Shown here piece after piece: positions 1,177-59,755 of a stretch of 64,000 nt of DNA. A program made the translations under genes and the position numbers. The notes beneath the pieces were generated by a model. That model saw only the letters and a program-made list of their open reading frames with translations. It was not told the origin of the DNA and made no database searches. Within the stretch, counting starts at the first letter, position 1; each line of letters starts with the position of its first letter. This stretch comes from Minisyncoccia bacterium (lineage in GTDB: Bacteria > Patescibacteriota > Minisyncoccia > Phycocordibacterales > UBA9973): assembly GCA_038249055.1 (NCBI GenBank), contig JBBRWS010000006.1, positions 927 to 64,926 on the forward strand, given 5' to 3'.

Positions 1177-2886
1177 TTATTCATTAACTACTCGCATTAT
1201 TTCTTCTATTGTAGTAACTCCTCTTTCTATTTTATCTAGACCGTCTTTAAACATTGTTATCATACCCTTTGAAATAGCATATTTTCTAAGTTCTGAAACT
1301 TGCACTTCTTTTGCTATCAATTCACGAGCTTCCTCATCTATAGCAAAAACTTCAAATATTCCAATCTGTCCAGTAAATCCTGAATTACCGCAAACTTTAC
1401 AGCCTTTTCCACGATAAATAGTTGTTGGAATATCTACATGTTCAATCCCAGAAAATGCTATCTGTTCTTTTATGTTTTTTATTATTTCTGGCGTTGGTTC
1501 ATATGATTCAATACACGAACTACAAATACGGCGAACTAGACGTTGAGCAATAATTAAATTGACAGTCGAAGAAAGCAGGAATGCTGGCGCTTTCATATCT
1601 ATCAAACGAGGAATGGCAGATGGTGCGTCATTAGTATGCAAAGATGACAAAACCAAGTGACCAGTAAGAGCCGCTTGAATCGCAATCTCTACTGTTTCAT
1701 CATCTCGAATTTCTCCTATCATTATAATATCTGGATTTTGACGAAGCAGAGCACGAAGTCCATTAGCAAAAGTTATCCCTGTTTTTGTATTAACTTGAGT
1801 TTGATTTACTCTTGGAAATTCATATTCAATAGGATCTTCAATGGTAGTAATGTTTACTAAGGGTGTATTTAAAATATGTAGTATTGCATAGAGAGTAGTT
1901 GTTTTTCCATGACCGGTAGGTCCAGTAACAAGAATCATTCCGTGTGGTTTTTTAATTTCATTACTAAGTATTTCACTCGCTTGATCTGAAAAGCCGAGAT
2001 CTTTTAAAGTTAGCGGTCGTGCTGAACTTTTTAGTAATCTCATCTCAACTTTTTCACCGTGAAAAATTGGCATAATATTTACACGAACATCAAGATTGGA
2101 TCCATCTTGCATTTCAAAACGAAAACGCCCATCTTGAGGAATACGATGTTCATCTATTTGAAGATTGCCGAGAATTTTTACCCGAGCTACAAGTATAGGG
2201 GCTATGTCTTCAGGTAGAGTTACTATTTCATTCATTATTCCATCTATACGAAAACGGATTAAGAGTGAATGTTCAAGTGGTTCAAAATGAATATCGGATG
2301 CATTTAAAGTAATAGCCTGCTCAATAATGTTATCTAATATTGCAACAATAGGCACTGCTGCTGCTGTTTTTTTAAGATCTTTTCCGTCTGTAATTAAAAG
2401 AGATTGTTCTATATTTTCAGAAATAATTTGATTAAAACCAGTATTTATTTTCTGTTTATATTGCTTTAAACCATAACGCAAACTAGTATATGTAGTGAGA
2501 TATATATCTACCCAGGCATTAAATTTGGCACGTATATACTCTATTGTGTCATAATCAAGTGGGTCGAGCATTGCTAATTTTACAATCCCCTTTTCTTTAT
2601 CATAATCAAAAAGTACTATACTTTTTGATTTAGCATAGACTTCTGGAATAAGTTCTACAACTGAACGCTCTAGAACTATCTTTTTTAAATTTATTATTGG
2701 AACTCCATAATAAGGAGCTAGAAGTTCTGTTAAATAATCTTCTGTTATTTTTTCATTTCCAATTAAAATATTTGTTATAGTTTGACCACTGCGCTTTGAT
2801 TCTTCTTGAGCTAATTTAAAATCTTCTTCAGAAACTAACCCTGACTCAAGTAAAATAGATTTAAGTTTTTCTTCGCTTATATGCAT
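1177..2886 (-). CDS. pilB: Type IV pilus assembly ATPase PilB (GspE family)
   Basis: 569 aa. Walker A GPTGHGKTTT, an Asp/His box and a C-terminal tetracysteine motif (CSSC...CKVC). The N-terminal domain is GspE_N-like. Confidence 0.9.
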   Translation of the reverse strand: MHISEEKLKSILLESGLVSEEDFKLAQEESKRSGQTITNILIGNEKITEDYLTELLAPYYGVPIINLKKIVLERSVVELIPEVYAKSKSIVLFDYDKEKGIVKLAMLDPLDYDTIEYIRAKFNAWVDIYLTTYTSLRYGLKQYKQKINTGFNQIISENIEQSLLITDGKDLKKTAAAVPIVAILDNIIEQAITLNASDIHFEPLEHSLLIRFRIDGIMNEIVTLPEDIAPILVARVKILGNLQIDEHRIPQDGRFRFEMQDGSNLDVRVNIMPIFHGEKVEMRLLKSSARPLTLKDLGFSDQASEILSNEIKKPHGMILVTGPTGHGKTTTLYAILHILNTPLVNITTIEDPIEYEFPRVNQTQVNTKTGITFANGLRALLRQNPDIIMIGEIRDDETVEIAIQAALTGHLVLSSLHTNDAPSAIPRLIDMKAPAFLLSSTVNLIIAQRLVRRICSSCIESYEPTPEIIKNIKEQIAFSGIEHVDIPTTIYRGKGCKVCGNSGFTGQIGIFEVFAIDEEARELIAKEVQVSELRKYAISKGMITMFKDGLDKIERGVTTIEEIMRVVNE

Positions 2887-2967
2887 GTCATAATTATAAC
2901 ATATTTATATAATAAAAGTTTAAAAAATATACTAATTAAATCAAAATAAACTTTTTTAATAAAAATC

Positions 2968-3172
2968 TGGCCGAACTGAGAGGTCCAACCACGTGTGGCC
3001 CCAGTGATTGTACCTCTAATGAGGAAACCCAAGGTCTTTTTAAAAAATATGATACGATTATTTTTATTTATAATCCATAACAGGGGTACAACCTTGATTG
3101 AGTACAATCACCTACTGGGCCGAAGCCACAGCCCGTGAGGTCAATTTGGTAATTGAAGCTTGGACCTCTATA
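2968..3172. repeat. Composite GC-rich palindromic repeat (two sub-elements) of the GAGGTCCAACC/GGTACAACC family
   Basis: gaggtccaaccacgtgtggccccagtgattgtacctc (2979-3017) and ggggtacaaccttgattgagtacaatcacctactgggccgaagccacagcccgtgaggtc...cttggacctcta (3083-3170). The second part aligns over about 95 bp with the copy at 5400-5490. Confidence 0.8.
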
Positions 3173-3179
3173 AAAACTC

Positions 3180-3953
3180 TTAAAAATAACTTAATATAAT
3201 TTTAGTGAAAAGTAGCCCAAAAAATGTTGCAAATATAAATGCTGGTTCAACAGCTAATATTTTGTTAATTTCTGATTCAATAAAATTTATTTTTGGGAAA
3301 AATTGTTTAAAAATGGTTTCAGATAATCTTTCTGATATAACAGGATAAATTTTCTTAAAAATAGTTTTTAAATAATAAAAAGCAAAGAACAAAATAGCAA
3401 AAATAAACCCTAAGGACAAGGAAACTAATACTCCCATCCATCCAGAAATCAGCATTAGAACTAACATTAACTCAGGACCCTTTTCCAAAAATCCTCCCCG
3501 ATAAAATTTCCAAGTTCTAAATACAAAATACATAAGACCTGAAAAAGTAAATAAAATAAAAATATTAAGCCATACTCTTCCCCAAATATAAAACAAGAAA
3601 TATCCAAGATTATTATTAAAAAGTGGACGAGTCCATTCTAAATAAGAAGGAAATGTAATTTCTACAGGAAGAGGAGAAGTTAATAAAAACTTAGTAACTT
3701 CACTTGCGGTTGACCATACATAGTACTGACCCCAAGAAACAAATAATCCATAAAAAATATTCAAACCGAGAGCGATAAGAATAAGTTTTAAAAATGAAAT
3801 ATTCTTTAGTCCAGTAAATATTTTTGACAGGAATTTATTGTTGGATTTTATCCAAGTAGGTTGAAAATAACGAATAGCTACTATGATTAAAAATAAAATC
3901 CATACACCTAAAACTATCGCGTTTAAATTAGAAAAAATAAAATTTAATATCAT
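3180..3953 (-). CDS. Hypothetical polytopic membrane protein
   Basis: 257 aa ORF with 6 or more hydrophobic segments. No prepilin-peptidase motifs (no CxxC, no DxxxD), so it is not called PilD. Confidence 0.5.
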   Translation of the reverse strand: MILNFIFSNLNAIVLGVWILFLIIVAIRYFQPTWIKSNNKFLSKIFTGLKNISFLKLILIALGLNIFYGLFVSWGQYYVWSTASEVTKFLLTSPLPVEITFPSYLEWTRPLFNNNLGYFLFYIWGRVWLNIFILFTFSGLMYFVFRTWKFYRGGFLEKGPELMLVLMLISGWMGVLVSLSLGFIFAILFFAFYYLKTIFKKIYPVISERLSETIFKQFFPKINFIESEINKILAVEPAFIFATFFGLLFTKIILSYF

Positions 3954-4014
3954 AATGCCCTATTATATACAAAAAACACCTCAGTGTAAAACTGAGGTGT
4001 TTTTAGAGAGAAAA

Positions 4015-4698
4015 TTAGAAATCTACTCCAGCTGCTGTCTTACCCAAAATTAATAAGTTAGTACCAGTTTCATAATAAAGATTACTATTTCCACCGTCAC
4101 TTAAATATTTATTGTCAGTTGAAGTATATGCTGTACTTTCTAGAGTAGCATCAATTTCAAAACCAATAGGACTTTGTGAACATCCATAACGATAAACTAA
4201 GTCTGTATTTGCAACATTAGTGCCTGGGGTTGCAACTGTATTTATAGGGTCAACAGGAACATTTGATATTGGAGAACCTCCAGATATATTTCCAAAATTA
4301 ACAGGAATCCAACCTGTACCATTTGTAAGTCCTGGAGTTGCTGATTGCACTAAAGCTGGAACACTGCCAGTTCCACCGTCTAATGTTGCATCTGTCATAG
4401 CAGTTCCAGATGGAAGAGAGTAAAATATTTTATTTGTTCCTGCCCATGTTCCAGTTGTAGCCTGACATTCAGCATTTGATGCTAAACCTCCTAGGTATAC
4501 AGGTGAGACACTTGTCATATAAAGACCAATAGCTGTTTTTAATGTACTCAAGTCGGAGATACGTTGAGCATCACGCGCCTTTTTTAAAGTTTCTGCTGGA
4601 TTCAAAACAATAACAAGAGCAACGGAAAGAATAGCTAAGATAGCTATAACAATCAAGAGCTCCAACAATGTAAAACCACCCTTTTTATTCTTTTTCAT
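4015..4698 (-). CDS. Type IV pilin/pseudopilin (prepilin with class III signal peptide)
   Basis: The likely start is MKKNKKGG|FTLLELLIVIAILAIL (internal ATG of the track ORF 4015..4743). This is a classic prepilin leader with an N-terminal hydrophobic helix. The C-terminal Cys pair is compatible with a disulfide loop. Confidence 0.8.
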   Translation of the reverse strand: MKKNKKGGFTLLELLIVIAILAILSVALVIVLNPAETLKKARDAQRISDLSTLKTAIGLYMTSVSPVYLGGLASNAECQATTGTWAGTNKIFYSLPSGTAMTDATLDGGTGSVPALVQSATPGLTNGTGWIPVNFGNISGGSPISNVPVDPINTVATPGTNVANTDLVYRYGCSQSPIGFEIDATLESTAYTSTDNKYLSDGGNSNLYYETGTNLLILGKTAAGVDF

Positions 4699-4897
4699 AA
4701 AAAATATATTTATAGAAATAAAATTATTAATAATATATAACACTTCGATATGGTAATTATATCAAAAAACATAAAAACAAACAAACAATTGTGGATAACT
4801 ATATTAAAACATTCAACATTTATAATAAATAGTGACCACTAGATATCTTAAAAAAATTCTTTTTAGTATTTATTAAGTAAAGAAATAAATTTAAAAT

Positions 4898-5281
4898 TTA
4901 TTTAAGATACATTTTTATTTTATTTATAATTTCTTGAATAGATTGATCTATTTTAACTAAATATTCAGTTGCTCCGAGTTCTAATGCTCGAGTCTTATCG
5001 TCTTGTTGTCCAAGATTTGAAATAATTATTATTGGAATTTTTGAATATTTTGAATTTTTTCTAATTTCCTCTAACACCCAAAAACCATCTTTCTTTGGAA
5101 TCATTAAATCAAGAATAACAAGGTCTGGATGTGCTTCTTCAAGGAGTTCTATTGCTTCTTCCCCATTACGGGCAAGAATTGAAAAAATTCCAGCTTTTGC
5201 GAGCTGTAATTGATAAACTTTTGAAATCTGAAAATCATCTTCTACTATTAGTATCCTCTTTTCATCTGTATCCATGTACAC
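4898..5281 (-). CDS. Single-domain response regulator receiver (CheY-like)
   Basis: 127 aa. ILIVEDD...DLVILDLMIP...K gives the acidic pocket, phospho-acceptor Asp and conserved Lys pattern. There is no output domain. Confidence 0.8.
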   Translation of the reverse strand: MYMDTDEKRILIVEDDFQISKVYQLQLAKAGIFSILARNGEEAIELLEEAHPDLVILDLMIPKKDGFWVLEEIRKNSKYSKIPIIIISNLGQQDDKTRALELGATEYLVKIDQSIQEIINKIKMYLK

Positions 5282-5367
5282 ACATATAATAACATTTAAA
5301 ATAAAACTATCAAATTAAATGTTATTTTTATTTATCTATTTTTAAAAAATAATACTAGGTTTTTTGT

Positions 5368-5490
5368 GGGAGTATACCTCCACACTTATATTTTTATAGA
5401 CATCCAACCTTGATTTAGTAAAATCACCTCACGGGCTAGCTGGCTTCGCCCAGTAGGTCATTATGCTTAATAAGAGGTTGTACATCTATA
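5368..5490. repeat. GC-rich palindromic repeat element (same family as 3083-3170)
   Basis: catccaaccttgatttagtaaaatcacctcacgggctagctggcttcgcccagtaggtcatt...aagaggttgtacatcta. The flanks are collinear with the 3083-3170 copy. The central 26-28 bp hairpin is inverted relative to that copy. Confidence 0.8.
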
Positions 5491-5568
5491 AAAATGGTTT
5501 GGGGGTATAGCAAGAAAATATAAAACTTGTTATAATTATTCAGAGATATAAGGGTTTCGTAAATCATT

Positions 5569-7020
5569 ATGAATATTTTAAATTTACTTACAAAAGAAAA
5601 ACACGTAGCAGGGGTTGAAATTAACGACTTGTTTATACGTGTTACTTATTTTCGACCTCGGAAGAGAACTATTTTTAAAAAACATGAAGGTATTACAAAG
5701 CCCCCTAAGAATGAAATAGTATTAATAGAAGAATCTATACCTCCAAATGTTGTTTCAAATGGGATTGTTGTGGATAAAGTAACGCTAGGAAAGATTTTAA
5801 AAAAAATCTGGAACAAAGAGAAACTTAAAAAAAGCTACGCGATTGTTTCAATACCAGAGGATAAAATTTATTCTCATGTTTTTAGCTTCCCTAAAAATGT
5901 TACTGAGCAACAACTAGAGCTAGCCATAAATCTAGCTATTGATTTCCAACTGCCTTTCAAAAAAAATGAAGTTTATACTGGCTGGGAAAATAATAATGTT
6001 TCTAATACTTCAAATGAAATCCTTATTTCTGCAATACCTAAAAATATTGCAGATGATTATATTGAGGTTTTAAATAATGTGGATATTAGTGTTCTAGCAC
6101 TTGAATCACACATTGCAAGTATAGCCCGTTCTATAAAATTAAATGCTGGAGAAACAACTCTTATTACAAAGAAAAATCAGTTTAGCATAACGGTATTCAG
6201 CTTAAAGGATGGCATAAATCAATTTTCAAGGACATTACCACTTGTCTTTGTGAATGATGAAGAAAAATTAATTTCTGAAGTAAATAAAATAAAAATTTCT
6301 CTTGAATCTGAAACAAAAGAATCAATCAAACTACTCTCCCTCATAAACGCAACGGTCAAAGATGAATATTCAATTTACCCAGAAATTTCTGCTGACCCAG
6401 AATCCAAATGGTTTGTATCTCTAGGAGCATTTATTCGAGGAGAAATAGCACAAGGAGAAGATTATCAAATAAGTTTACTTCCTGTTGGTACTGTTAAAGC
6501 TTATGAATATCAAAAATCAAAAACATTCATAACCCTTGTTCGTAATATAATAATAGATATTTCTATATTCTTTTTAATCACTTTTATAATTGCTTATCTT
6601 TTAATTTTTTCTCTTTCTCAAATAATAACTAATACAAGTACTAATATTTCAATTGCCCCAGTTTCTCCTGAGTTAGTAGAAAAAGAATCCTTAATTAAAA
6701 AAATAAATTCTTTAACCTCAATATCTTCTTCATTTTTATCTAGCACAATAAATTGGAGTATTCTAATAGATGAAATTAATTCTCGAACTACAAGTGGAAT
6801 TATAATATCTAATTTTTCAGTTCCTTCAATAAATGAAAATGTTTCCATTATTGGTCTAGCAAAAGATCGTGATACTTTAAATGTATTTAAGAAGTCACTT
6901 CAGGAATCATCTTATGTAACTCAAGTAGAACTACCAATTACAAATTTAGAACAAAAAGCAGATATCCCATTTTCACTTTCATTTCATATTAAAGATCCTA
7001 GTATGTTATATTATAAATAA
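5569..7020 (+). CDS. PilM-like (actin-fold) protein fused to a PilN-like transmembrane/periplasmic tail
   Basis: 483 aa. The N-terminal roughly 330 aa look like a pilus-assembly ATPase-like fold. They are followed by a TM segment (IIIDISIFFLITFIIAYLLIF) and a C-terminal domain of about 120 aa. The gene lies in the pilus locus. Confidence 0.45.
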   Translation: MNILNLLTKEKHVAGVEINDLFIRVTYFRPRKRTIFKKHEGITKPPKNEIVLIEESIPPNVVSNGIVVDKVTLGKILKKIWNKEKLKKSYAIVSIPEDKIYSHVFSFPKNVTEQQLELAINLAIDFQLPFKKNEVYTGWENNNVSNTSNEILISAIPKNIADDYIEVLNNVDISVLALESHIASIARSIKLNAGETTLITKKNQFSITVFSLKDGINQFSRTLPLVFVNDEEKLISEVNKIKISLESETKESIKLLSLINATVKDEYSIYPEISADPESKWFVSLGAFIRGEIAQGEDYQISLLPVGTVKAYEYQKSKTFITLVRNIIIDISIFFLITFIIAYLLIFSLSQIITNTSTNISIAPVSPELVEKESLIKKINSLTSISSSFLSSTINWSILIDEINSRTTSGIIISNFSVPSINENVSIIGLAKDRDTLNVFKKSLQESSYVTQVELPITNLEQKADIPFSLSFHIKDPSMLYYK

Positions 7021-10739: not shown

Positions 10740-11177
10740 TTATTTAAGAAAAATCCATTTCTTTTTTAATTTCTTTGCTTCATTTATTAAAATTTCTTTA
10801 TCAATGTTATACTTTTCCGCGATAACTTTCAATTTTTCAATTTTCTTTGGATTACGCACTTCTCTTAATTCTAATTTTTTATCTATCCTTTTACCTAAAA
10901 TATAATAAAATCTCCATCTGAGTGTATATTTTGGAAACATATAAACAATACCTATTAGAAAATATAATTTATGTATAGGAAATTTTAAATTTTTATGACC
11001 AGACCAACGAGCACGAGTATAAGTATAAACAATATCAGATATCTCACTCCATGTATCAATTACCCCCTTGGCTTCTTTTAATTCATTAAATTCATCTAGA
11101 ATATCTTGTTCATGCCAAGCTAAATCATTTTTAGGCATATCTAAATAAGAATGCCATTTATTAATTAATTTTTCCAT
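10740..11177 (-). CDS. Hypothetical protein
   Basis: 145 aa ORF, basic C-terminus. No motif recognised. Confidence 0.35.
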   Translation of the reverse strand: MEKLINKWHSYLDMPKNDLAWHEQDILDEFNELKEAKGVIDTWSEISDIVYTYTRARWSGHKNLKFPIHKLYFLIGIVYMFPKYTLRWRFYYILGKRIDKKLELREVRNPKKIEKLKVIAEKYNIDKEILINEAKKLKKKWIFLK

Positions 11178-11193
11178 TTTTTGTTAATTTAAT

Positions 11194-12027
11194 TTATAAA
11201 ACTAAAAGGACTAGTCCTAGTATTATTAAAAGAAAAGATATTATTTTAATTGCTAAATGTTTTTCATTGAAAAGCTTATTACCAGAAACAATAGACCACA
11301 ATATAGAAAACGCTCTCTTACCACTCGTGACAACAGAAGCTGGTGCGTATAGATAAGCCTTACTTACAAAAACACCTCCAATTCCCATTAAAATTGATTG
11401 GGCAAAAAATTCTTTTTTAAAAACATATGTAAGTGGATTTTCTTTATATTTCCAAATAGACATTATGAATAAAAAAATAAGTAAGAAAAATGAAGTGATT
11501 ATTTGTTGAGCTTCTACAGAATTATAATAAGTAATACAATATTTATAAATGGTTATAGTGGCGACAGCATTGGTAGCACTAAAAATTACATAACCAATCC
11601 CCTTTTTATTAATACCATGATTAATAAAAAGAAATATAAGGCTTACTACAATCACAAAAATTCCAACTACAGCCCAAATTCCTATCTTATACCCCAATAA
11701 AATATCAACAACAAGTAAAAGAGGGATTGTTATAATCATCAAGAAACCGGAAGTGCTACGGTCGGCTAGAGCAATAGCATTCAAAGATGAATACAATTGT
11801 GCAAATTCTAATATTATCAACACAATTAATATAGGGATTGATGTATAATTAAAAACAAAATTATTATTAATTATTGCTATTATTATAAAAATAACCATAA
11901 GCCAAAAATAATTTAAAAAGCCAAACGTATATATATTTTCCTTTTTATGTAAAATTTCCCACTTACCAAAAGATAAAGAGATTTCATCAAAAAAAGTACC
12001 GAGTGCTGCGAGAGTAATACCAATCAT
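11194..12027 (-). CDS. Polytopic membrane protein (possibly EamA/DMT-like)
   Basis: 277 aa with about 8-9 hydrophobic helices. Confidence 0.35.
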   Translation of the reverse strand: MIGITLAALGTFFDEISLSFGKWEILHKKENIYTFGFLNYFWLMVIFIIIAIINNNFVFNYTSIPILIVLIILEFAQLYSSLNAIALADRSTSGFLMIITIPLLLVVDILLGYKIGIWAVVGIFVIVVSLIFLFINHGINKKGIGYVIFSATNAVATITIYKYCITYYNSVEAQQIITSFFLLIFLFIMSIWKYKENPLTYVFKKEFFAQSILMGIGGVFVSKAYLYAPASVVTSGKRAFSILWSIVSGNKLFNEKHLAIKIISFLLIILGLVLLVL

Positions 12028-15709: not shown

Positions 15710-15780
15710 GGGCGATTAGTTTAGTGGTAGAACAACGGTCTCCAAAACCGTTGGTGGGGGTTCGATTCCTCCATCGCCCG
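15710..15780 (+). tRNA. tRNA-Trp (anticodon CCA)
   Basis: Manual fold. Acceptor gggcgat/atcgccc, D arm tagtttagtggtagaacaa, anticodon arm acggt-cTCCAaa-accgt, T arm gggggttcgattcctcc. CCA is not encoded. Confidence 0.85.
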
Positions 15781-15784
15781 CAAA

Positions 15785-15810
15785 TAAAAAAACAGCGTAA
15801 GCTGTTTTTT
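15785..15810 (+). terminator. Rho-independent terminator after tRNA-Trp
   Basis: aaaaaaacagcgtaagctgtttttt. It is flanked by atcgccc / gggcgat, an inverted copy of the tRNA 3' acceptor strand. Confidence 0.7.
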
Positions 15811-15960
15811 AGGGCGATAGCAAGCAAACTGCTTTGCTTGCGTGGAGGCAGGCCGACATTATGGCCTGCACTTGTCGACGGGAATCGAAAAGCTTTTCGT
15901 TTTTCGGTGTTAACCGAAACGAAAAGGTATACTGTCCTTGTAGAGGAAGATATCCTCCAT
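15811..15960 (+). other. Conserved tRNA-downstream non-coding module, copy 1 (shared with 36383-36520)
   Basis: gggcgatAGCAAGCAAACTGCTTTGCTTGCGTG...TCGAAAAGCTTTTCGTT...CGAAAAGGTATACTG aligns with the tRNA-Ala-downstream region. A partial direct copy of the tRNA-Trp 3' end (tcctccatcg) lies at 15948-15957. Confidence 0.6.
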
Positions 15961-16017
15961 CGTATAATTGTACTCGTGGCCTTCCTCCCATATCTACTTT
16001 TTTCTATTCTTTGCTAT

Positions 16018-16375
16018 AATGACCTTATCCATGTCCAACATACTTCAAATGATATTAATGCTAGCTTCTGCTCTGCTTATAATAATTGCTGATACCATAA
16101 TCAAAAAAGAGAGTCTTTCCCATGGATTTGTAAATTCTCTTTCAACTCCTTTAATGTTTGTAGCTTATATTCTTTATTTTATTCAAATAGTTATAGCTAT
16201 TTATATTTTCAGAAAGGGAGGAGAACTAGCAATCTACACAAATCTATATATTATTTTTTATTCAATTTTAGGAATTTTAACAGGCATCATAATCTTTAGC
16301 GAACATATATCTTTGGTACAATCAGTAGGAATTGTGTTTGCACTAATAGGTGCAGTGTTATTAAATTTAAAATAA
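16018..16375 (+). CDS. Small 4-TM membrane protein (SMR/DMT-like, hypothetical)
   Basis: The track ORF 15968..16375 overlaps the tRNA-downstream module. The likely start is ATG at 16018 or 16030 (MTLSMSNILQ...), just after a TATAAT box at 16014-16019. Four hydrophobic helices. Confidence 0.4.
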
Positions 16376-17031: not shown

Positions 17032-18165
17032 TTAAACTATGACTTTTAGTAATAATGCACTTATTCTAGTCGTTACCTCGTAATTTATAGTATCAGAATT
17101 AAGGGCCATATCTTCAGCTGTAATCTCATTTTTTCCTTGTTTACCTAAAATAACAACTTCATCTTCTGGTAATACATCTTTGATATTAGAGACATCAACT
17201 ACTATCATATTCATTGCTACTCTTCCTAAAATTTTTGCTCTTTTACCTTTTATCAAAACTTCCCCTTTATTTGAAAGTGACCGAGGTAATCCGTCAGCAT
17301 AACCTTGTGGAATTACTGCTATCTTTGTAACTTTTTTTGTAATATAAGTAAGACCATAACCAATAGGATGATTAGCGGGTAGAATTTTTATTTGGGCCAC
17401 ATGGGTCACCCATCTTAATGCTGGCTTCAACACAAGTTTCTTTTTATTTAAATATTTTAAATGCTCGCTTGGCCACATACCATAAAGACCAAGACCTAGA
17501 CGAACAATACTATGTAAACTATTACCCTTTTCATAAACAAGAATTCCAGACGTTGCAGAAATATGAGTATTTATTTTATCAAAACCATTTGATTTAAAAA
17601 TTTCTACAAACTTATGATACATTTCTATTTGTTTTTGGGCATGAGTAAAATTCATAGTATCCTCAATATTAGCAAAATGAGAATAGATACCATCAATTTC
17701 AATGTTTTTCATTTTTTTTACCTCTACTATAAAATTCTCGATTTGGTTAGGCATTATTCCTTCTCTCCCAAGATATGAATCTATCGGAACATGAACTTTG
17801 GTTTTGATTTTTAAATTACCAGAAATAAAATTAATTTTTAAAAGATTTATTAAATCAAAAGCAGAAATTATAGCTTTTGATTTTATTGCTCTTTTTATCC
17901 CATCTTCATTTAAATAACCAAAAATTAAAATTGGTTTTTTAGTAACTTTCCTAACTTTTTCACATTCTTCTATACTATTCACCTGGAAATAATCCACATA
18001 AGAATTAATAGCTTTTACTACACATAAATCACCATGACCGTAAGCATTGGCTTTTATAACCGCCGCCATTTTTATATTTTTATTAAGTAGACCACGAAAC
18101 TGCTTGATATTATGTATCAAGTTTTCTTTTGAAATTTCTATATAAGAAAGTGATTTATTGACCAT
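17032..18165 (-). CDS. alr: Alanine racemase
   Basis: PLP-binding motif AVIKANAYGHG near the N-terminus. 377 aa, two-domain architecture length. Confidence 0.85.
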   Translation of the reverse strand: MVNKSLSYIEISKENLIHNIKQFRGLLNKNIKMAAVIKANAYGHGDLCVVKAINSYVDYFQVNSIEECEKVRKVTKKPILIFGYLNEDGIKRAIKSKAIISAFDLINLLKINFISGNLKIKTKVHVPIDSYLGREGIMPNQIENFIVEVKKMKNIEIDGIYSHFANIEDTMNFTHAQKQIEMYHKFVEIFKSNGFDKINTHISATSGILVYEKGNSLHSIVRLGLGLYGMWPSEHLKYLNKKKLVLKPALRWVTHVAQIKILPANHPIGYGLTYITKKVTKIAVIPQGYADGLPRSLSNKGEVLIKGKRAKILGRVAMNMIVVDVSNIKDVLPEDEVVILGKQGKNEITAEDMALNSDTINYEVTTRISALLLKVIV

Positions 18166-18357
18166 AATTTTTATTCTAGCATTTTAGCCAAATTTTTAAT
18201 ACACACTCTGACACCATAATAAAATGAGGATCATGAGTACATTTCTTGGTCCATATTGGACCTGTACACCTTTCGTATTTTCTAAGATTGGTAAATCATA
18301 TAAAATATACTCAAGGTTTTCAAGTCCTCTCACGCAAGCCGTACCAACGGCTTGCTT

Positions 18358-18414
18358 CCGGCACCATAATTAAAAAACCAGGACTTTGTCCTGGTTTTTT
18401 AATTATGGTGCCGG
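18358..18414. terminator. Extended palindrome/bidirectional terminator embedding the tRNA-Leu 3' end
   Basis: ccggcaccataattaaaaaacc-aggactttgtcct-ggttttttaattatggtgccgg. The arms are perfect 22-bp inverted repeats and the loop is itself palindromic. The right arm is the 3' end of tRNA-Leu. Confidence 0.8.
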
Positions 18415-18490
18415 AGAGAGGACTTGAACCTCCATCCCTTGCGAGACGCGATTTTGAGTCGCGCGCGTATACCAATTCCGCCACTCCGGC
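18406..18490 (-). tRNA. tRNA-Leu (anticodon CAA), CCA encoded
   Basis: The reverse complement reads GCCGGAGTGGCGGAATTGGTATACGCGCGCGACTCAAAATCGCGTCTCGCAAGGGATGGAGGTTCAAGTCCTCTCTCCGGCACCA. Long variable arm, anticodon loop cTCAAaa. Confidence 0.9.
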
Positions 18491-28036: not shown

Positions 28037-30235
28037 TTATTCCAATACTTTACGAAGAATATCTTCTGGAACTTCTCTTTTAGCTTTTGGCTTTTGCCAA
28101 GAATTATTTTGATCTTCTTGTTTATTTATTAATTGTTCTTCTTTTTTGGGTTCTTCATTTTTTTCTATCTTTAATGATTCAGTTTCTACTTCTTTTTCTT
28201 TTATTATTGGTTTATTTTCTATCACTACATCCTGCTCTTTATTTGCCAATATATCCTCTTTTTTAGAAACACTTACTTCTTTTATTTTTTCAGTATTTAA
28301 AGTTGATTCTGTTTTATTAGCCATAGAAATCCTTGCTAATACGTCTTTTAATGAAGCCTTATTCTCTTCAGATGCTTCTTTAGTAGGTAAAATATTTATA
28401 TTTTTTACATTTGGATTATCATTTCTTTTTAATTCAGAAAGAGACATCGGAGCTTGCTTAGGAACAATATTTTCCTCTATTTTAAATCCTTCTTTAGAAG
28501 ACGGTTCCTTGCCACCTATTGCAATTTTTTCTAATAAACCTCTTAAAAGTGGAGATGGGCCAGTGTGTTTCTTTTTTTCTGCAAACTGTGTGCCATTTAT
28601 ATTACTTGGTTTTTGTGCTAAAGGTTGGACCAATGATTTACCTGAATAATTTTTAAAATTATTTTTCTGAGTAGGTCCCAATTTTACATCTAAAGGTTTA
28701 AATTCTATTCCTAGTGCTGCAAGAGGAGCAGTGGAAACTTTCTCTTCTTGATTTGCAGAACGTGACGCTACGAAACCACTTTCAGGCTTGAGCTCCCCAC
28801 TTTTAATTTTAAACATGCATTCCTTACAATATACAGGTCTACCTTCTTTGGGTTCAAAAGGAACCATGGTAGATTTTTTACAATTGGAACAATCCGCTTT
28901 GTATTTTGCATCACCTTCTCCCACCTGAAGCATACCACTCCATTTTGAAATTTCATTTTCAACTTCTTCTCGTGGACGAGTAAATAATCTACGTGATGAT
29001 TCTATAATTTTTTCCTTAACTCCCTTGGATACATCAATTTTTATTGGAGGAAGAGTTGTAGCAGAAAATGGGCGACTAGTAATACCATCAATCATTAATT
29101 TGAGGTAAATATTATAGTTAGGAAGATTTACTAAATCTTGAGCCATGAATTCAGGTTCAAATTCTTTTTCTAAAAAATCAGCATCGTCTGCTCCAACGCG
29201 GAATATTATCATAGTTCCAACGTTACCAAAAACAGCATCACGAACTTTTGAGCCATCTTTATTTTCAAGCTGAGCTGTATATTGGTGAGCAACTGTAAGA
29301 TTGAGTCTATATTTACGAGCTTCAGAAAGAATATTTGCGAATGAATCTGTTGCAAAATTTTGGAATTCGTCGACATAAAGATAAAAATCTTTTCTATCTT
29401 CTTCTGGAATACGTACGCGTTCCATAGCAGCAAGTTGTATCTTTGTAATAATCATACCTCCCAATAAGGCAGAGTTATCTTCTCCGATACGTCCTTTTGA
29501 CACATTCACAAGGAAAATTTTTCCTTCATTCATTATTTTGAAAATATCAATAGTTGATTTTGGCTGGCCTAAAACATTTCGAATAATAGAAGTTGAAAGA
29601 AATTGCCCAACTTTGTTTTGAATCGGCGCTATAGCTTCATTACGAAATTGGTCACGCCATTGTTCATATTCATGGACCCAAAAAGCCTTAACTACTGGGT
29701 CCTTCAAATTAGCAATTATCATTTGACGATAATCTTTATCAACTAAAAGTCTTGGAATACCCAAAAGAGTAGTTCCTGGAGTATCTAGAAGCGCTAGAAT
29801 TGCATTGTTTAAAATGTATTCCATACGAGAACTCCAAGCATTTGCCCAAATCTTTGTAAAAATACCCATGAGTCCTGATGCAACTAAGTGTTTATATTTT
29901 GGGTCATCAATTTGTAAAACATTAAATCCAATATGAAAATCTGTATCTGCGGGATTAAAATAAATAACGTCCTTTACTCTATTGTCTGGAATAAGATGCA
30001 AAATTTCTTCTACTAGTTCTCCATGTGGGTCTACGACACAAACACCTTCTCCGTTCTGTATATTTTGAACGATTAGATTAGAAAGTAATACAGATTTACC
30101 TGTACCTGACTTTCCTAAAACATACATATGTTGACGACGGTCTTTGCGTCTAATACCAAAAATTTCATTACTACTACGAAAATTCGTCTTAGCAAAATAA
30201 GTGATGTCTCTATTGTGTGGCATTTCATTGTCCAT
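28037..30235 (-). CDS. TraD/TraG/VirD4-like (T4CP-like, FtsK/HerA superfamily) P-loop ATPase with C-terminal zinc ribbon and K/E-rich tail
   Basis: Walker A GKSGTGKS, Walker B FYLYVDEF, conserved DPHGE. Zn ribbon CSNCKK...CKEC. It is a paralogue of 33059..34426. Confidence 0.6.
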   Translation of the reverse strand: MDNEMPHNRDITYFAKTNFRSSNEIFGIRRKDRRQHMYVLGKSGTGKSVLLSNLIVQNIQNGEGVCVVDPHGELVEEILHLIPDNRVKDVIYFNPADTDFHIGFNVLQIDDPKYKHLVASGLMGIFTKIWANAWSSRMEYILNNAILALLDTPGTTLLGIPRLLVDKDYRQMIIANLKDPVVKAFWVHEYEQWRDQFRNEAIAPIQNKVGQFLSTSIIRNVLGQPKSTIDIFKIMNEGKIFLVNVSKGRIGEDNSALLGGMIITKIQLAAMERVRIPEEDRKDFYLYVDEFQNFATDSFANILSEARKYRLNLTVAHQYTAQLENKDGSKVRDAVFGNVGTMIIFRVGADDADFLEKEFEPEFMAQDLVNLPNYNIYLKLMIDGITSRPFSATTLPPIKIDVSKGVKEKIIESSRRLFTRPREEVENEISKWSGMLQVGEGDAKYKADCSNCKKSTMVPFEPKEGRPVYCKECMFKIKSGELKPESGFVASRSANQEEKVSTAPLAALGIEFKPLDVKLGPTQKNNFKNYSGKSLVQPLAQKPSNINGTQFAEKKKHTGPSPLLRGLLEKIAIGGKEPSSKEGFKIEENIVPKQAPMSLSELKRNDNPNVKNINILPTKEASEENKASLKDVLARISMANKTESTLNTEKIKEVSVSKKEDILANKEQDVVIENKPIIKEKEVETESLKIEKNEEPKKEEQLINKQEDQNNSWQKPKAKREVPEDILRKVLE

Positions 30236-33058: not shown

Positions 33059-34426
33059 TTATTCTTCTGCAATTAATCTATGGGCCTCGTTTGCTGAAAT
33101 AGCATATTTTGCGCGTGAAGCTTCTATCACTTCTTTACGATAAGATTGATGGGTGGGAGGGAGAACTCTTAGTGTCTCTGCAGAAAATGGATCATAACTC
33201 TCTCCATCTATTGTCATTTTAATATAAAATTCTCCTACTCCAAGATTTATCATATCTTTAACATCAAAAACTGGAGCAAATTCTGGTTTAAGTTTTGTGG
33301 CATCATCACCTCCAACTCGGAATGAAACAATAGTACCTATATTGCCGAGTACGGCCTGTTGCACCTTTGGTAAAAGCTGACTAATATATTGATGAGCTAC
33401 TATTAGATTTATCCCATACTTACGAGCTTCAGATAAAATATTTTCAAATGTATCTGTAATAATATTATGGAATTCGTCTATATATAAATAAAAATCATGT
33501 CGATCCTGTGGTCCAAGTTTTGCTCTTTCCATCCCCGCTTGTTTTATTTTAGTCAAAAAAATAGCTCCAAAAAAAGAAGAATTTTCTTCACCAATTTTTC
33601 CCTTTGAAAGATTAATTAAAATAATTTTCTGATTATTCATTAATTGTTCCAAATCTATTTTATTTTCTTTTTGTCCAAAAATATTACGAAGCATTGGGTC
33701 TGATAAAAATTGTCCCAATTTATTTACAAGAGGAATAATAGTATCTGTATCAAATTTTTCAGACCAGTCAGCGAATTCAATGGCCCAGAATCTTTTTACC
33801 ATTTCATCTTGTATATACTCAGTGACTTTTTGACGATAATTACGATCAGTAAGCATTAAAATCATCCCTCTCATATTAGCTTCCGGATAATCGAGTAAAG
33901 CTAAAATCGTAAAACGAAAAACATGCTCGAGACGTGGAGACCAATTTGCACCAAATTGCTTACGTAACACTTCTATCAAACCTTGAGTTAGTTGGTGTTT
34001 AAAAGTTGGATCAATATTTGCAAGAGGGTTAAAAGATGCTGGAAATTCTACGTCACCTGGATCAATAATACAAACATCATCTATTCTATCTTTTGGAATA
34101 AAATTTAAAATATCTTCTATTAGTTCACCGTGTGGATCAATTACACAAATACCTTGACCATATGCAATATCTTGGCGAATCATTAATTCTTGAATTTTTG
34201 ATTTACCAACACCAGACTTACCAATAATATACATATGTCTCCTACGATCTATACGCTTTATGCCAAAGACGAATTTTTTTTCTTCCAATGCTGCCACATA
34301 ATTGGTACGTCCAATAAACACAACTTCACTTGGGTCTGACTTTCCTAAAGTTGCCAAATCTGGAGGTGGTGGAGCATATTTAATTATTTGAATTTTATTT
34401 GGTTTACTGAAAGACATTGTATTCAA
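33059..34426 (-). CDS. TraD/TraG/VirD4-like (T4CP-like) P-loop ATPase, paralogue 2
   Basis: Walker A GKSGVGKS, DPHGE, Walker B FYLYIDEF. 455 aa. Collinear with the N-terminal two-thirds of 28037..30235. Confidence 0.6.
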   Translation of the reverse strand: MNTMSFSKPNKIQIIKYAPPPPDLATLGKSDPSEVVFIGRTNYVAALEEKKFVFGIKRIDRRRHMYIIGKSGVGKSKIQELMIRQDIAYGQGICVIDPHGELIEDILNFIPKDRIDDVCIIDPGDVEFPASFNPLANIDPTFKHQLTQGLIEVLRKQFGANWSPRLEHVFRFTILALLDYPEANMRGMILMLTDRNYRQKVTEYIQDEMVKRFWAIEFADWSEKFDTDTIIPLVNKLGQFLSDPMLRNIFGQKENKIDLEQLMNNQKIILINLSKGKIGEENSSFFGAIFLTKIKQAGMERAKLGPQDRHDFYLYIDEFHNIITDTFENILSEARKYGINLIVAHQYISQLLPKVQQAVLGNIGTIVSFRVGGDDATKLKPEFAPVFDVKDMINLGVGEFYIKMTIDGESYDPFSAETLRVLPPTHQSYRKEVIEASRAKYAISANEAHRLIAEE

Positions 34427-36083: not shown

Positions 36084-36269
36084 TTAAACAAGTAAAAAAT
36101 ATGAGCATCCATACATTTATAATATTGAATATATGGGCGCTTATATTAACTTGCAAAAAATATAAAATACGGTAAGATAGGAGTATCTTAATTATTAATT
36201 TAATAATTATTGGGTTTAGTTAGATATTTAATTCTTAATTGGTCATTCTTAATTATTAATTATATTATT

Positions 36270-36342
36270 GGGCCTTTAGCTCATCTGGTAGAGCGCCTCA
36301 TTTGCAATGAGGAGGTAAGCGGTCCGAGTCCGCTAAGGTCCA
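36270..36342 (+). tRNA. tRNA-Ala (anticodon TGC) with G3:U70
   Basis: GGGCCTTTAGCTCATCTGGTAGAGCGCCTCATTTGCAATGAGGAGGTAAGCGGTCCGAGTCCGCTAAGGTCCA. Anticodon arm cctca-tTTGCAa-tgagg. Acceptor G3-T70 wobble (the Ala identity element). CC follows and the final A is not encoded. Confidence 0.85.
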
Positions 36343-36349
36343 CCCGTTG

Positions 36350-36382
36350 AAAAAAGAGACATGCGAAAGCATGCCTTTTTTC
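36350..36382 (+). terminator. Rho-independent terminator after tRNA-Ala
   Basis: aaaaaagagacatgcgaaagcatgcctttttt. It is flanked by cgctaaggtccacc / ggtggaccttagcg, a 14-nt inverted copy of the tRNA 3' end. Confidence 0.75.
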
Positions 36383-36520
36383 TTAGGTGGACCTTAGCGA
36401 GCAAACTACTTTGCTCGCGTGCGGCGATTAGTAAATCGAACCGTGAGGAACTCGGAAAGCTTTTCGTTATAAATTTTAATTTAATAATTTAAATTTATCG
36501 AAAAGGTGTACTGAAGCAGT
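36383..36520 (+). other. Conserved tRNA-downstream non-coding module, copy 2
   Basis: ggaccttAGCGAGCAAACTACTTTGCTCGCGTG...TCGAA...GGAAAGCTTTTCGTT...CGAAAAGGTGTACTG. The motif order is the same as at 15811-15942. Confidence 0.6.
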
Positions 36521-36732
36521 AGGCTTCGAGAAATGTAATCATGGTCCGCCTATCGTGATACACAATATTTAGATGCAAAGCATACTATATAAAAAGTTTT
36601 AGTCGCGGGTGAGAAGCGCGAATAAGTACATTCGCCTACTGGGTACTCGCGGTCCGCTACTTGTAGGCTTCGAGAAATGTACTCATGGTCCGCCTTTCGT
36701 GATACACAATATTTAGATGCAAAGCATATCAC
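36521..36732. repeat. Two 65-bp direct repeats
   Basis: aggcttcgagaaatgta(a/c)tcatggtccgcct(a/t)tcgtgatacacaatatttagatgcaaagcata occurs at 36521-36585 and 36666-36730. The track ORF 36550..36732 is a translation artefact of this repeat. A partial copy of the tRNA-Ala T-arm (gcggtccgcta) lies at 36651-36661. Confidence 0.85.
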
Positions 36733-38872: not shown

Positions 38873-39850
38873 TTATTCCCATTCAAATTTTCTTCCAAAA
38901 TGTCCCCACGTGCAAGTATCAGAAAATTTAACAACATCCAATTTCAAGTGATTATGTATCCCCTTTGGAGTTAAATCGTAATCAGTTATTTCTACTTCTT
39001 TTCCATCTATTACAGCCACAGCCATTACTGGCTCACTCTTACCTATTGCATAAGCAAGCTTTGTATATACTTCTTTCGCATTATGCTTCTTTAGTAAGTC
39101 CACAGCTATTTTACGAGCCATATAAGCACCAGAGCGATCTACTTTTGTATAATCCTTACCAGAGAAAGAACCTCCTCCAATTGTAATCTCTGGTCCATAG
39201 TTATCTACTATCAATTTTCTTCCAGAAAGTCCTGTGTCTGCATCAAATCCACCTTGATTCCATTCTCCCGCAGGATTTATAAGATATTCTTCTGATTCAA
39301 TAATATTTTTTACAAGTTCTAAAAGTTTATCGTTTTTAGTATTTTGAAAACTAGCTACGACTGTAGTAACGACACCATTATCTACTGTCACTTGAGTCTT
39401 TCCATCATAAGGATATACTTCAAATATTTTCTGACATAAATTTCGGGCAAGATTATATTCGAGAGGTAAATATGTATCAGTCTCACTTGTAGCATAACCT
39501 TTCATTATTCCTTGGTCTCCCGCTCCACCCGTATCAACTCCTTGTGCTATTTCTGGACTTTGTAAAACTATATTCGACAAAATTTTAAAATCTTTACCTA
39601 CTATTTTTTTTATAATAGCTTCTATGTCTGGATTTGATTTTGAAGTAACTTCTCCATTGATGGCTACCAGATTATGCCCACCCATTACTTCTATAGCACA
39701 ACGACTATTCTTATCTCCTTCTAAATATGCATCTAAAATACTATCCGCAATAAAATCACATATTTTATCTGGGTGCATTGGACTCACAAACTCTGCAGTT
39801 TTTTTACTCATGCTTGATTTATAAGGAAGAATGACTATATAAATCGGCAT
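38873..39850 (-). CDS. metK: S-adenosylmethionine synthetase (short form)
   Basis: Near the N-terminus: FVSPMHPDKICDFIADSILDAYL (the GHPDK motif). Also GGGAFSGKD. The likely start is the internal ATG (MSKKTAEF..., about 39811). Total length is about 312-325 aa. Confidence 0.8.
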   Translation of the reverse strand: MPIYIVILPYKSSMSKKTAEFVSPMHPDKICDFIADSILDAYLEGDKNSRCAIEVMGGHNLVAINGEVTSKSNPDIEAIIKKIVGKDFKILSNIVLQSPEIAQGVDTGGAGDQGIMKGYATSETDTYLPLEYNLARNLCQKIFEVYPYDGKTQVTVDNGVVTTVVASFQNTKNDKLLELVKNIIESEEYLINPAGEWNQGGFDADTGLSGRKLIVDNYGPEITIGGGSFSGKDYTKVDRSGAYMARKIAVDLLKKHNAKEVYTKLAYAIGKSEPVMAVAVIDGKEVEITDYDLTPKGIHNHLKLDVVKFSDTCTWGHFGRKFEWE

Positions 39851-40165
39851 CCTGTTAAATAAGATTTAACAGGGTTGATTAAAATATAATACGCTTCGCT
39901 CCTTTATTTTAATTAAAAAATTCCTCATAATGAGGAAAGATATAGATGACTAGTCTTATCTTTCCATAATAATACACTTGCATTATTTGGCTGGATTTAG
40001 CACCTTGCTTTCGCGGGTTGCTGATGGGTCATTGAGCCAGTTGCTCTCGCCATACTCTTGATAACTAACTATTTAGTTGTAATTTTATTATAGCATAATT
40101 TTATAAACAAAAATATTTCCATAAAAAAAATAACGAGGATATATCCTCGTTATTTTTTTATAATA

Positions 40166-42361: not shown

Positions 42362-43153
42362 TTAATATCTCCTAAAACTTCCTTGCGTGCGCAATACTGG
42401 CTTATAATATGAACTAAATGATTGTCTATTATTATTTTGAATTGAATTTGCTATATTTTTATTCGCATATATATTAGCAACATGTTCATCGACTGTTATA
42501 TTTATTGTCTGACAAGCATATGATAATTTCCCTATTGCAAACTGAACTTCATTTTCATTTAATTTTTCTTGATTGTATTTTTTAATGCATTCAATCAACT
42601 TATTGAGATAAACCACGTTTTCAATTGGTTCTGTTTTTATTTCAGCTTCCCCTGTGAATACAACAATATTATAAAAATTATCTTTAGCAAAAGGCATCAA
42701 ATCTTTCAGCGCCATCAAGTGCCCATAATTTTGATGAATAGGATTTTGAAATTTATATTTAATTGCCCCTGGCATTGATTGTGTCCATGTTGATTGATTT
42801 TTACTACCAAAAATCCACCCTTTTAAATCTTTACTTTCTAAAACAAAAATTCCAAATTTAGAAACAATTATATGATCAATTTGAGTTGACCCATTATTTT
42901 TAGAATTTATAATAATATTATTAAATATAAAATAATCAGTATAACTTAATTCAGCAGCAAGCAGATCTGCAACTTTTTGTTCTCCAGAATTTAAACCTTC
43001 CATATAGCATTTACATGCATGTTTATTTTTATTATTATATCTAATTTTTTGTAATTCGTATGGGAAACTTCTATCTTTAAACAGCCATTTAAAAAACTTT
43101 ATAATCAAATATATAATTATTACATCTAATATCAAATAAAATAATATATCCAT
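42362..43153 (-). CDS. NERD (nuclease-related domain) protein with N-terminal TM
   Basis: N-terminal hydrophobic helix. The NERD core is QIDHIIVSKFGIFVLESKDLKGWIFGSKNQSTW. Confidence 0.55.
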   Translation of the reverse strand: MDILFYLILDVIIIYLIIKFFKWLFKDRSFPYELQKIRYNNKNKHACKCYMEGLNSGEQKVADLLAAELSYTDYFIFNNIIINSKNNGSTQIDHIIVSKFGIFVLESKDLKGWIFGSKNQSTWTQSMPGAIKYKFQNPIHQNYGHLMALKDLMPFAKDNFYNIVVFTGEAEIKTEPIENVVYLNKLIECIKKYNQEKLNENEVQFAIGKLSYACQTINITVDEHVANIYANKNIANSIQNNNRQSFSSYYKPVLRTQGSFRRY

Positions 43154-59678: not shown

Positions 59679-59755
59679 CGTGATATAGCTCAGTTGGTAG
59701 AGCACTAAGCCTAAAAAACTCAGAGGTCGGGAGTTCAAGTCTCTCTATCACGACG
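59679..59755 (+). tRNA. tRNA-like gene with canonical acceptor, D and T arms but a 9-nt anticodon loop (CCUAAAAAA) and an A-C mismatch in the anticodon stem
   Basis: cgtgata-ta-gctc-agttggta-gagc-a-ctaag-cctaaaaaa-ctcag-aggtc-gggag-ttcaagt-ctctc-tatcacg-a. The architecture parallels tRNA-Lys/Thr. Terminator at 59797-59829. Confidence 0.5.

Follow-up and report, generated by a model that had tools for sequence, protein, structure and literature searches.

The DNA immediately downstream of the tRNA-Trp gene examined here raises the question of what a non-coding module that recurs behind several tRNA genes of one genome might be. A first-pass annotation, made from the sequence alone, had proposed either the arm of a small integrase-dependent element that targets tRNA 3′ ends or a conserved small RNA. 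The window, i.e., the whole stretch of 64,000 nucleotides that was analysed, has a G+C content of 30% and carries housekeeping genes (miaA, alr, murB, murA-like, uvrABC, ddl, metK and type IV pilus genes). Its MiaA homologues place the organism in the Paceibacteria/Nomurabacteria, the nearest relative showing 74% identity. ARAGORN detects four tRNA genes in the window:

15710..15781, + strand: tRNA-Trp(CCA), also found with the Rfam tRNA model (70.9 bits); the module arms are templated on its final ~22 nt
18406..18490, - strand: tRNA-Leu(CAA), also found with Rfam
36269..36345, + strand: tRNA-Ala(TGC), also found with Rfam
59679..59754, + strand: Phe-like tRNA

Modules are present after three of these four genes (Trp, Leu and Ala), and inspection of the flank downstream of the Phe-like tRNA (59679-59754, + strand) revealed no module. 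The Trp copy is composed of the following parts:

15782..15811, + strand: A-rich trailer and terminator hairpin (ACAGC-GTAA-GCTGT followed by a T tract), folding at -21.2 kcal/mol
15812..15818, + strand: 5′ arm A5, GGGCGAT, exact complement of the tRNA-Trp acceptor 3′ strand ATCGCCC
15819..15843, + strand: P2 hairpin AGCAAGCAAA-CTGC-TTTGCTTGC (hairpin sequence at 15819-15841), 9 bp with loop CTGC, supported by covariation
15844..15889, + strand: T5 (GGAGG), an extra hairpin and L5
15890..15947, + strand: apical domain with P5, junction and P6
15953..15962, + strand: 3′ arm or direct repeat TCCTCCATCG, made of the T-stem 3′ strand and the first 4 nt of the acceptor 3′ strand
15963..15989, + strand: remnant 3′ end of a second unit, with P7-like TGTACTCGTGG and T-stem-like CCTTCCTCC

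All motifs listed in the first-pass annotation lie at the positions given there, in the same order behind tRNA-Trp and tRNA-Ala (36386-36550 in the latter case). The first of them had been taken for a mimic of the tRNA 5′ acceptor strand, but it is the exact complement of the 3′ strand: the Ala arm reads GGACCTT, whereas the 5′ strand of the tRNA reads GGGCCTT. In the Trp copy, the trailer and terminator (15782-15811) together with 15812-15818 pair back onto the acceptor 3′ strand of the tRNA, and P2 is inserted at the place of tRNA nt 8-48. T5 (GGAGG) is the complement of the T-stem 3′ strand CCTCC and L5 (GGAATCGAA at 15881-15889) that of the T loop TTCGATTCC, the extra hairpin (15849-15868) being lineage-specific. 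P5 pairs CTTTTCG with CGAAAAG and encloses an inner hairpin (AAGCTTTTCG...CGAAAAGG at 15890-15927); it is followed by the junction GGTATACTG (15926-15934) and by the P6 hairpin TCCTTGTAGAGGA. The 3′ arm is truncated to 10 nt in the window, and 16 of 16 nt are present at the orthologous locus L055. The module initially estimated at ~140 nt is real but longer, reaching position ~15989. Its resemblance to the Ala copy is not due to chance, since the hairpin pattern GCAAACTNCTTTGCTNGCGTG, with up to three mismatches allowed, matches only the Trp and Ala sites with none expected in 100 shuffles, and since the Trp copy was recovered (57.8 bits, E = 8e-14) by a covariance model trained without it. 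An ORF of 122 aa annotated at 15724-16092 (+ strand) begins within tRNA-Trp and crosses the whole Trp module; it is almost certainly not a gene, in agreement with the first-pass annotation, which called it spurious.

That annotation reported two copies in the window, both of which are genuine, and missed a third one, located behind tRNA-Leu on the - strand (18214-18365). The Leu and Ala copies comprise:

18357..18405, - strand: Leu trailer, terminator and 5′ arm ATTATGGTGCCGGA, forming a perfect 28-bp hairpin with the tRNA-Leu 3′ end (-48.3 kcal/mol)
18214..18365, - strand: Leu module (covariance model, 93.8 bits)
18206..18220, - strand: degenerate second copy of the 5′ arm, ATTATGGTGtCaGAG, a tandem-unit remnant
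36346..36398, + strand: Ala trailer, bidirectional terminator (called on both strands) and 5′ arm GGTGGACCTTAGC
36387..36561, + strand: Ala module (covariance model, 88.6 bits), with the same motif order as the Trp copy
36562..36720, + strand: partial tandem units, the P6-P7-T3 end being repeated twice (19.2 bits at 36570-36705)

The Leu module contains P2 (18334-18355), T5/L5 (18319-18331), GGTGTACAGG (18261-18270), P6 (18248-18262), P7 (18231-18244) and a T3 segment TCCTC (18226-18230), and its 5′ arm is complementary to the tRNA at 14 of 14 positions, taking in CCA and the trailer. A promoter-like sequence, TTGAAA-17-TATGAT at 18295-18323 (- strand), lies within this module in the usual place of P5 and is aimed at alr, the alanine racemase gene (17032-18165). 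The Ala module contains P2 (36397-36418), an extra hairpin (36422-36443), L5 ACTCGGA (36450-36456), P5 (36457-36507), GGTGTACTG (36505-36513), P6 (36514-36526), P7 (36531-36544) and T3 TCCGCC (36545-36550); its 5′ arm is the complement of the tRNA-Ala 3′ end at 13 of 13 positions, with an A where the tRNA has the G3 of its G3.U70 pair. Direct copies of the tRNA 3′ region had been described downstream of both tRNA-Trp and tRNA-Ala: the former (TCCTCCATCG, 15953-15962) stands, whereas the latter (gcggtccgcta, 36650-36660) forms the end of another, partial unit.

P2, the T stem, P6 and the conserved junctions persist in all three window copies, as does P5 or the place where it would lie, and the 5′ arms of these copies are intact (7 nt for Trp, 13 nt for Ala, 14 nt plus trailer for Leu). 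The acceptor part of the 3′ arm is gone from all three, leaving TCCTCCATCG (Trp), TCCTC (Leu) and TCCGCC (Ala), after which each copy runs into fragments of a further unit. The copies share core motifs only, P2 and P5 differing by compensatory changes. They are old, partly eroded copies that have been inherited with their loci.

The module is not restricted to this genome. An exact-pattern scan of one genome per species led to 16 loci, 13 of them in Paceibacteria, Nomurabacteria or 'Saccharibacteria'-labelled MAGs; L004, L009 and L010, which come from non-CPR organisms, were left out. Scanning metagenomes in the same way gave 35 loci, about ten of which have no covariance-model match and were taken as chance pattern matches, and pattern scans of viral contigs gave no matches to the module. 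With a covariance model built from 13 copies (the Trp copy remaining outside the training set), we obtained about 40 distinct strong matches (45-150 bits), including extra copies inside loci and the Trp copy itself. The carriers are Paceibacteria/Nomurabacteria MAGs and metagenomes. Modules follow tRNAs for 13 amino acids with at least 17 anticodons, among them Ser (GCT, TGA, GGA, ACT), Ala, Arg, Gly, Lys, His, Gln (CTG, TTG), Glu, Asn, Tyr, Trp and Leu. They lie 30-45 nt downstream of the tRNA gene, on the tRNA strand in 29 of the 29 tRNA-linked cases; some loci (L006, L013, L022, L050 and L051) have a module without any tRNA upstream.

A search of the whole window with Rfam 15 at the gathering threshold detected only tRNAs and one SAM riboswitch (RF00162, 51.5 bits, 39953-40067, - strand, upstream of the S-adenosylmethionine synthetase gene at 38873-39850, - strand), and the HEARO model gave no match. 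In E-value mode, the best non-tRNA models reached 24-26 bits on the Trp, Ala and L005 modules, against thresholds of 50-70. BLASTN against phage and plasmid collections gave no matches to the module, and no description of it was found in the literature searched. The module is a member of an undescribed 135-175 nt non-coding family of Paceibacteria (CPR). Members of this family also accompany tRNA-Trp and tRNA-Leu in L055, L056 and L057, whose MiaA proteins are 69-74% identical to that of the window; as orthologous loci of diverged species carry them, the association of the module with these two tRNAs is old. Copies present within one genome are diverged paralogues.

The final ~22 nt of the tRNA gene (nt 54 to about 75) recur in the module as an inverted duplication, into which three conserved elements are inserted, namely the hairpin P2, the mini-hairpin P7 and, at the tip, the apical domain P5-GGUGUACUG-P6. 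This anatomy is read most cleanly in L005 (tRNA-Arg) and L014. From its 5′ end, the module begins with the complement of nt 74-66 (A5), followed by P2 (9 bp, loop usually CUNC), the complement of nt 65-54 (T5 and L5, e.g., GTAGGAATCGAA), AAAA, and P5, which has an invariant CUUUUC/GAAAAG base and a variable tip; then come GGUGUACUG and P6 (e.g., GAACC-UGUAA-GGUUC). The 3′ part consists of a sense copy of nt 54-59, AA, P7 (AUG-UACU-CAU), GG and a sense copy of nt 60 to about 75. The insertion points are fixed, P2 lying between the complements of nt 66 and 65 and P7 between nt 59 and 60. The 5′ arm complements the 3′ strand perfectly even at positions where the tRNA has a G.U pair (Ala G3.U70, Arg G2.U71, Trp T stem).

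Folded as a single strand, the module forms a rod whose stem reproduces the duplex of the 3′ end of the tRNA gene. A second pairing joins the 5′ arm to the end of the tRNA gene itself, on the other side of the terminator, which is predicted as a G+C-rich stem followed by a T tract between the tRNA and the module. Because the complementarity of the arm continues through discriminator, trailer and terminator, tRNA end, terminator and arm together form hairpins of 20-29 bp. In 25 loci, these long hairpins total 589 Watson-Crick pairs, 18 G.U pairs and 5 single mismatches, and many are perfect.

Compensatory covariation among the copies is strong. In 35 clean copies, 93.8% of the cells are paired, versus 70% in shuffles and 41-47% in slid controls, and 35 of the 44 pairs change on both sides (covariation score 0.607, against 0.08-0.09 in controls). 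All nine pairs of P2 covary, this helix being 99% paired. Covariation in the outer A and T stems is due in part to the tRNA origin of their two strands; P2, P6 and P7 owe nothing to the tRNA, and in some copies the AUG/CAU of P7 is replaced by GCG/CGC. There is partial support for a short helix formed by L5 with the sense T-loop copy. G.U pairs greatly outnumber A.C mismatches (114:18 overall, 26:3 in the tRNA-independent helices and 30:6 in the closing stem), which indicates that it is the tRNA-sense strand that folds, either as RNA or as single-stranded DNA. In the long tRNA-proximal hairpin, nearly all pairs are of the Watson-Crick type. The junctions GAAAAGGUGUACUG, CUGUAAG and AAAUGUACUCAUGG are invariant.

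The arms correspond to the neighbouring tRNA. In 15 of 24 copies, the 5′ arm is complementary to the cognate tRNA at nine of nine positions (the mean for non-cognate tRNAs is about 5.2), and the 3′ arm is identical to its own tRNA at 14 of 14 positions in 10 of 23 copies. Even T-loop variants are tracked by the arms (TTCAAGT in Leu, TTCAAAT in His, TCCGAGT in Ala). Perfect direct repeats of the tRNA end (15-18 nt, from nt 60) bracket terminator and module at ten loci (L002, L005, L007, L008, L021, L024, L032, L039, L047 and L055), the repeat of the L055 tRNA-Leu being 39 nt long; those of the window are reduced to 10 nt (Trp) or to the T-stem part (Leu and Ala). As a control, 15 module-less tRNAs from the same loci were compared with their flanks: they have no inverted end copy (mean longest match 3.8 nt) and no direct repeat, with the exception of the L055 tRNA-Trp, which has a variant module missed by the covariance model. 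The repeats therefore belong to the module and not to the tRNA terminators of these genomes, and the idea of a general tRNA-terminator design was rejected.

Several loci bear traces of exchange and accretion. Tandem or partial second units are present at the Ala and Leu sites of the window and in L015, L026, L030, L036, L043 and L056. L011 and L034 have tRNA-Lys, trailer and arms in common with different P2/P5/P6 subtypes, and the core of L034, with Lys arms, is nearly identical to that of L026, with Arg arms. In L006, L050, L051 and L048, the module is preceded by the motif GGTTYCNACNTCGNCCCARAC and an acceptor-like segment X. The same combination recurs at the ends of small gene units, arranged in arrays (L050 1-3650, L035 8100-10650, L048, and L006 2800-7700) in which every unit has a terminator at its start and closes with a T-arm-like motif and X. 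The array genes are miscellaneous (serine hydrolase, cupin, Fic, NUDIX, subtilase, peptidase S51, CYTH). L048, a strain variant of L035, is 99.8% identical to it from the X of tRNA-Asn onward and has a different cassette at the place of the L035 tRNA body, the join falling in the acceptor 3′ strand (X). These arrays look like an integron-like cassette system anchored at tRNA genes.

We searched for a recombinase that could act on such sites. Pfam analysis of all window ORFs of at least 110 aa detected no integrase, transposase or reverse transcriptase; neither did that of 150 ORFs near modules and of the array ORFs, on short contigs, in which no such family was enriched. In particular, neither the window nor the surroundings of about 35 modules yielded an integrase, the enzyme presupposed by the first-pass annotation, and no gene for an IS110/IscB/TnpB-type recombinase or nuclease lies beside any module. 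No clean filled-versus-empty pair was recovered for a module among the relatives compared, and a second terminator follows the module in 3 of 33 copies, plus the L055 Trp copy.

Our tentative interpretation is that an insertion element without genes of its own uses this sequence as its attachment module at tRNA 3′ ends, a reading that we hold slightly short of an even chance. A gene-less insertion unit, related to small gene cassettes, would recombine at tRNA 3′ ends and swap the tRNA 3′ end and terminator for element-borne copies, the displaced tRNA end staying behind as a direct repeat that starts at nt 60. By analogy with attC, a recombinase encoded elsewhere could meet a replica of its target site (nt 54-75) in the folded strand (RNA or single-stranded DNA), and P2 and P7, which branch 6 bp apart on opposite strands, may be comparable in geometry to the stagger between the exchange points of tyrosine recombinases. 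Candidate routes by which the arms, interleaved with conserved blocks, could be refitted to each tRNA are gene conversion, copy-back templated by the terminator hairpin and selection for pairing with the tRNA end.

This interpretation, which extends the integrative-element reading of the first-pass annotation, is supported, short of proof, by the cognate arms, the 15-18 nt direct repeats, the tandem units, the arm swapping and the cassette difference (polymorphism) between L035 and L048, as well as by a covarying single-strand fold that has a strand bias, the long hairpins of tRNA end, terminator and arm, the constant placement on the tRNA strand and the control of module-less tRNAs. It is opposed by the lack of any integrase, transposase or reverse transcriptase gene in the window or among the 150 nearby ORFs, by the lack of a clean empty site and by the scarcity of second terminators, and it does not explain how the interleaved arms come to match each tRNA. 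Diverged paralogues in one genome and Trp and Leu associations that predate species splits would fit a long-term function equally well, and covarying stems with invariant junctions are typical of functional RNAs.

The main alternative, possible if on balance unlikely, is that the module is an independent structured RNA that serves the cell and is produced when transcription from the tRNA promoter reads through. The closing helix of the module might then imitate the acceptor and T stem of the neighbouring tRNA for RNase P, RNase Z or a minihelix-binding protein; alternatively, the RNA might pair with the 3′ half of the tRNA precursor, its UGUA-type loops or junctions binding a protein. The covarying stems with their invariant junctions (GAAAAGGUGUACUG, CUGUAAG, AAAUGUACUCAUGG) and the excess of G.U over A.C, closing stem included (30:6), argue for the conserved small RNA already suspected at first reading without proving it, as do the insertion of P2 exactly at the place of tRNA nt 8-48, the conservation at orthologous tRNA-Trp and tRNA-Leu loci across species with MiaA proteins 69-74% identical, and the housekeeping-gene context. 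However, a terminator lies upstream of the module, there is no consistent promoter, and the promoters of downstream genes begin right after it. The arms complement the 3′ strand into discriminator and trailer, which is not tRNA-like, the Ala copies have an A-U pair instead of the G3.U70 identity pair, and the acceptor 3′ strand is absent from all three window copies; cassette arrays and arm swapping would also be left unexplained. The element and RNA readings are not mutually exclusive: the conservation pattern favours an RNA, whereas the location of the module, with a terminator before it and the next promoter behind it, speaks against one, as does the non-tRNA-like extension of the arms.

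A more speculative reading, which we regard as improbable, is that the module is a programmable nucleic-acid device rather than a passive att site. As a retargetable guide, similar to a bridge RNA or to attC, its arms, matching both strands of the tRNA end, would steer a sequence-independent recombinase. Alternatively, RNase Z might excise the succession of trailer, terminator, arm, core and repeat from read-through transcripts at two identical tRNA-like ends; the product would then be sealed into a circular RNA of ~190 nt, rod-shaped and viroid-like, and the copies in the genome would be its DNA forms. Both versions fit the perfect palindromes, the invariant P2 (66|65) and P7 (59|60) insertion points located 6 bp apart and the arm swapping.

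It is very unlikely that the module is a cis-acting extension of the tRNA terminator, in which the 20-29 bp hairpin would be a processing site (e.g., for RNase III) or an insulator and the remainder would be spacer or serve the next gene as a promoter. Such a role would agree with the long, near-perfect hairpins seen at nearly all tRNA-linked copies, with the retention of the 5′ arm and not of the 3′ acceptor arm in the window copies, and with the promoter-like site of the Leu copy aimed at alr, but it explains neither the conserved and covarying P2, P5, P6 and P7 nor the direct repeats, and it is at odds with modules that have no upstream tRNA (L006, L013, L050 and L051) and with the ordinary flanks of module-less tRNAs. 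Decayed tandem tRNA duplicates, i.e., pseudo-tRNAs with insertions, are scarcely credible: acceptor-like and T-stem-like strands do flank the module in tRNA order, but the 5′ strands are complements of the 3′ strands and not copies of tRNA 5′ strands at three of the three G.U positions examined, the T-loop segment is inverted, the same core stands behind tRNAs for 13 amino acids and ARAGORN calls no tRNA at the modules, so that a tRNA duplication was rejected.

Other candidates were discarded. A retro-element primed by tRNA was rejected, the complementarity following the genomic trailer and not the added CCA of a primer-binding site. A small peptide starting at the ATG of P7 was rejected too, since this ATG changes to GCG with a compensating change and the downstream codons are tRNA-derived. 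A promoter of its own in the trailer was not retained for the module, a TATAAT-like sequence being present at few loci only, and persistence of the original second terminator after the module, which held in 3 of 33 copies only, is not a general rule.

The nearest precedents for a folded attachment site are the attC sites of integrons, which are folded single-stranded recombination sites of gene cassettes, and the folded site of the CTX phage. Like attC, the attachment module proposed here is an imperfect inverted repeat that folds in one strand only, as indicated by its strand bias, with an X...X'...X topology (core site, inverse core, core), bulges on the stem sides and a variable apical part, and it is associated with arrays of small miscellaneous cassettes (L050, L035/L048 and L006). 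Unlike attC, it has no RYYYAAC/GTTRRRY (R''/R') boxes in the alignment, its paired arms vary with the local tRNA, its junctions are highly conserved in sequence and its anchor is a tRNA gene end instead of an attI site. Moreover, no intI-like gene or attI was found in the window or the array ORFs examined, which lie on short contigs, and each module unit brings a terminator, whereas the cassettes have their own promoters.

Plant mitochondrial t-elements and mascRNA are known tRNA-like processing signals. The module likewise places an acceptor-plus-T-stem mimic beside other transcripts, and RNase P or RNase Z could cut it; however, its helix passes through the discriminator, a domain of roughly 90 nt replaces the T loop, its arms copy the neighbouring tRNA exactly and a terminator precedes it. 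Partial tRNA repeats have been described in tycheposon islands (bioRxiv 10.1101/2020.12.28.424599). With tycheposons, CIMEs and other integrative elements of tRNA genes, the module shares insertion at the tRNA 3′ part, a direct repeat of the tRNA end and tandem accretion at one tRNA with degenerate copies. Those elements, or their ancestors, have a tyrosine recombinase with one fixed target, whereas none was found here, where units of ~190 bp with one core stand behind a set of tRNAs for 13 amino acids with arms matched in both orientations.

Repeats of the REPIN or Correia type are also short, gene-less, hairpin-forming and intergenic, beside terminators, but they have fixed terminal repeats and many near-identical copies, whereas the module has target-derived arms and diverged copies with compensatory changes. 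It differs from MITEs in the same respects, having neither fixed terminal inverted repeats nor near-identical copies and carrying target-derived arms. The bridge RNA of IS110 and other guide RNAs of mobile elements resemble it as structured non-coding RNAs of ~150-180 nt complementary to both target strands; the module differs by having no adjacent recombinase gene, guide-like arms that pair with each other and a long direct repeat instead of a 2-nt core.

If our interpretation is correct, a folded non-coding element that reproduces the end of the gene accompanies many tRNA genes in a major CPR lineage, with a single conserved core adapted to tRNAs of 13 amino acid specificities (at least 17 anticodons). 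This would represent a new way of recognizing targets at tRNA genes, via matched nucleic-acid arms and not via a one-site protein, and would connect tRNA genes with arrays of small cassettes in genomes regarded as containing little mobile DNA. The module offers a testable case for either a new class of structured RNA or a new folded recombination site. In practice, recognizing it removes spurious ORFs such as 15724-16092 and explains unannotated gaps of 150-400 bp after tRNAs.

Some additional features of these genomes deserve mention. Two TrwB/TraG-like coupling-protein ATPases of the type IV secretion or DNA uptake type are encoded in the window (28037-30235 and 33059-34426, both on the - strand), in the same genome as type IV pilus genes (1177-7020). 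Genes for a NERD-domain nuclease and a DpnI-like methyl-directed restriction enzyme are near each other (42362-43153 and 44009-44776, both on the - strand) and may form a defence islet. In one relative, L053, an rve-family (IS481/IS3-like) transposase gene (11034-11969) lies immediately downstream of miaA; no tRNA gene was found in this locus, and the contig ends about 200 bp past the transposase gene. An A at the wobble position of a tRNA is unusual in bacteria. The Phe-like tRNA of the window has the anticodon AAA and an imperfect anticodon stem, and a tRNA-Ser with the anticodon ACT is conserved in several relatives (L002, L008, L019, L021, L031 and L032).
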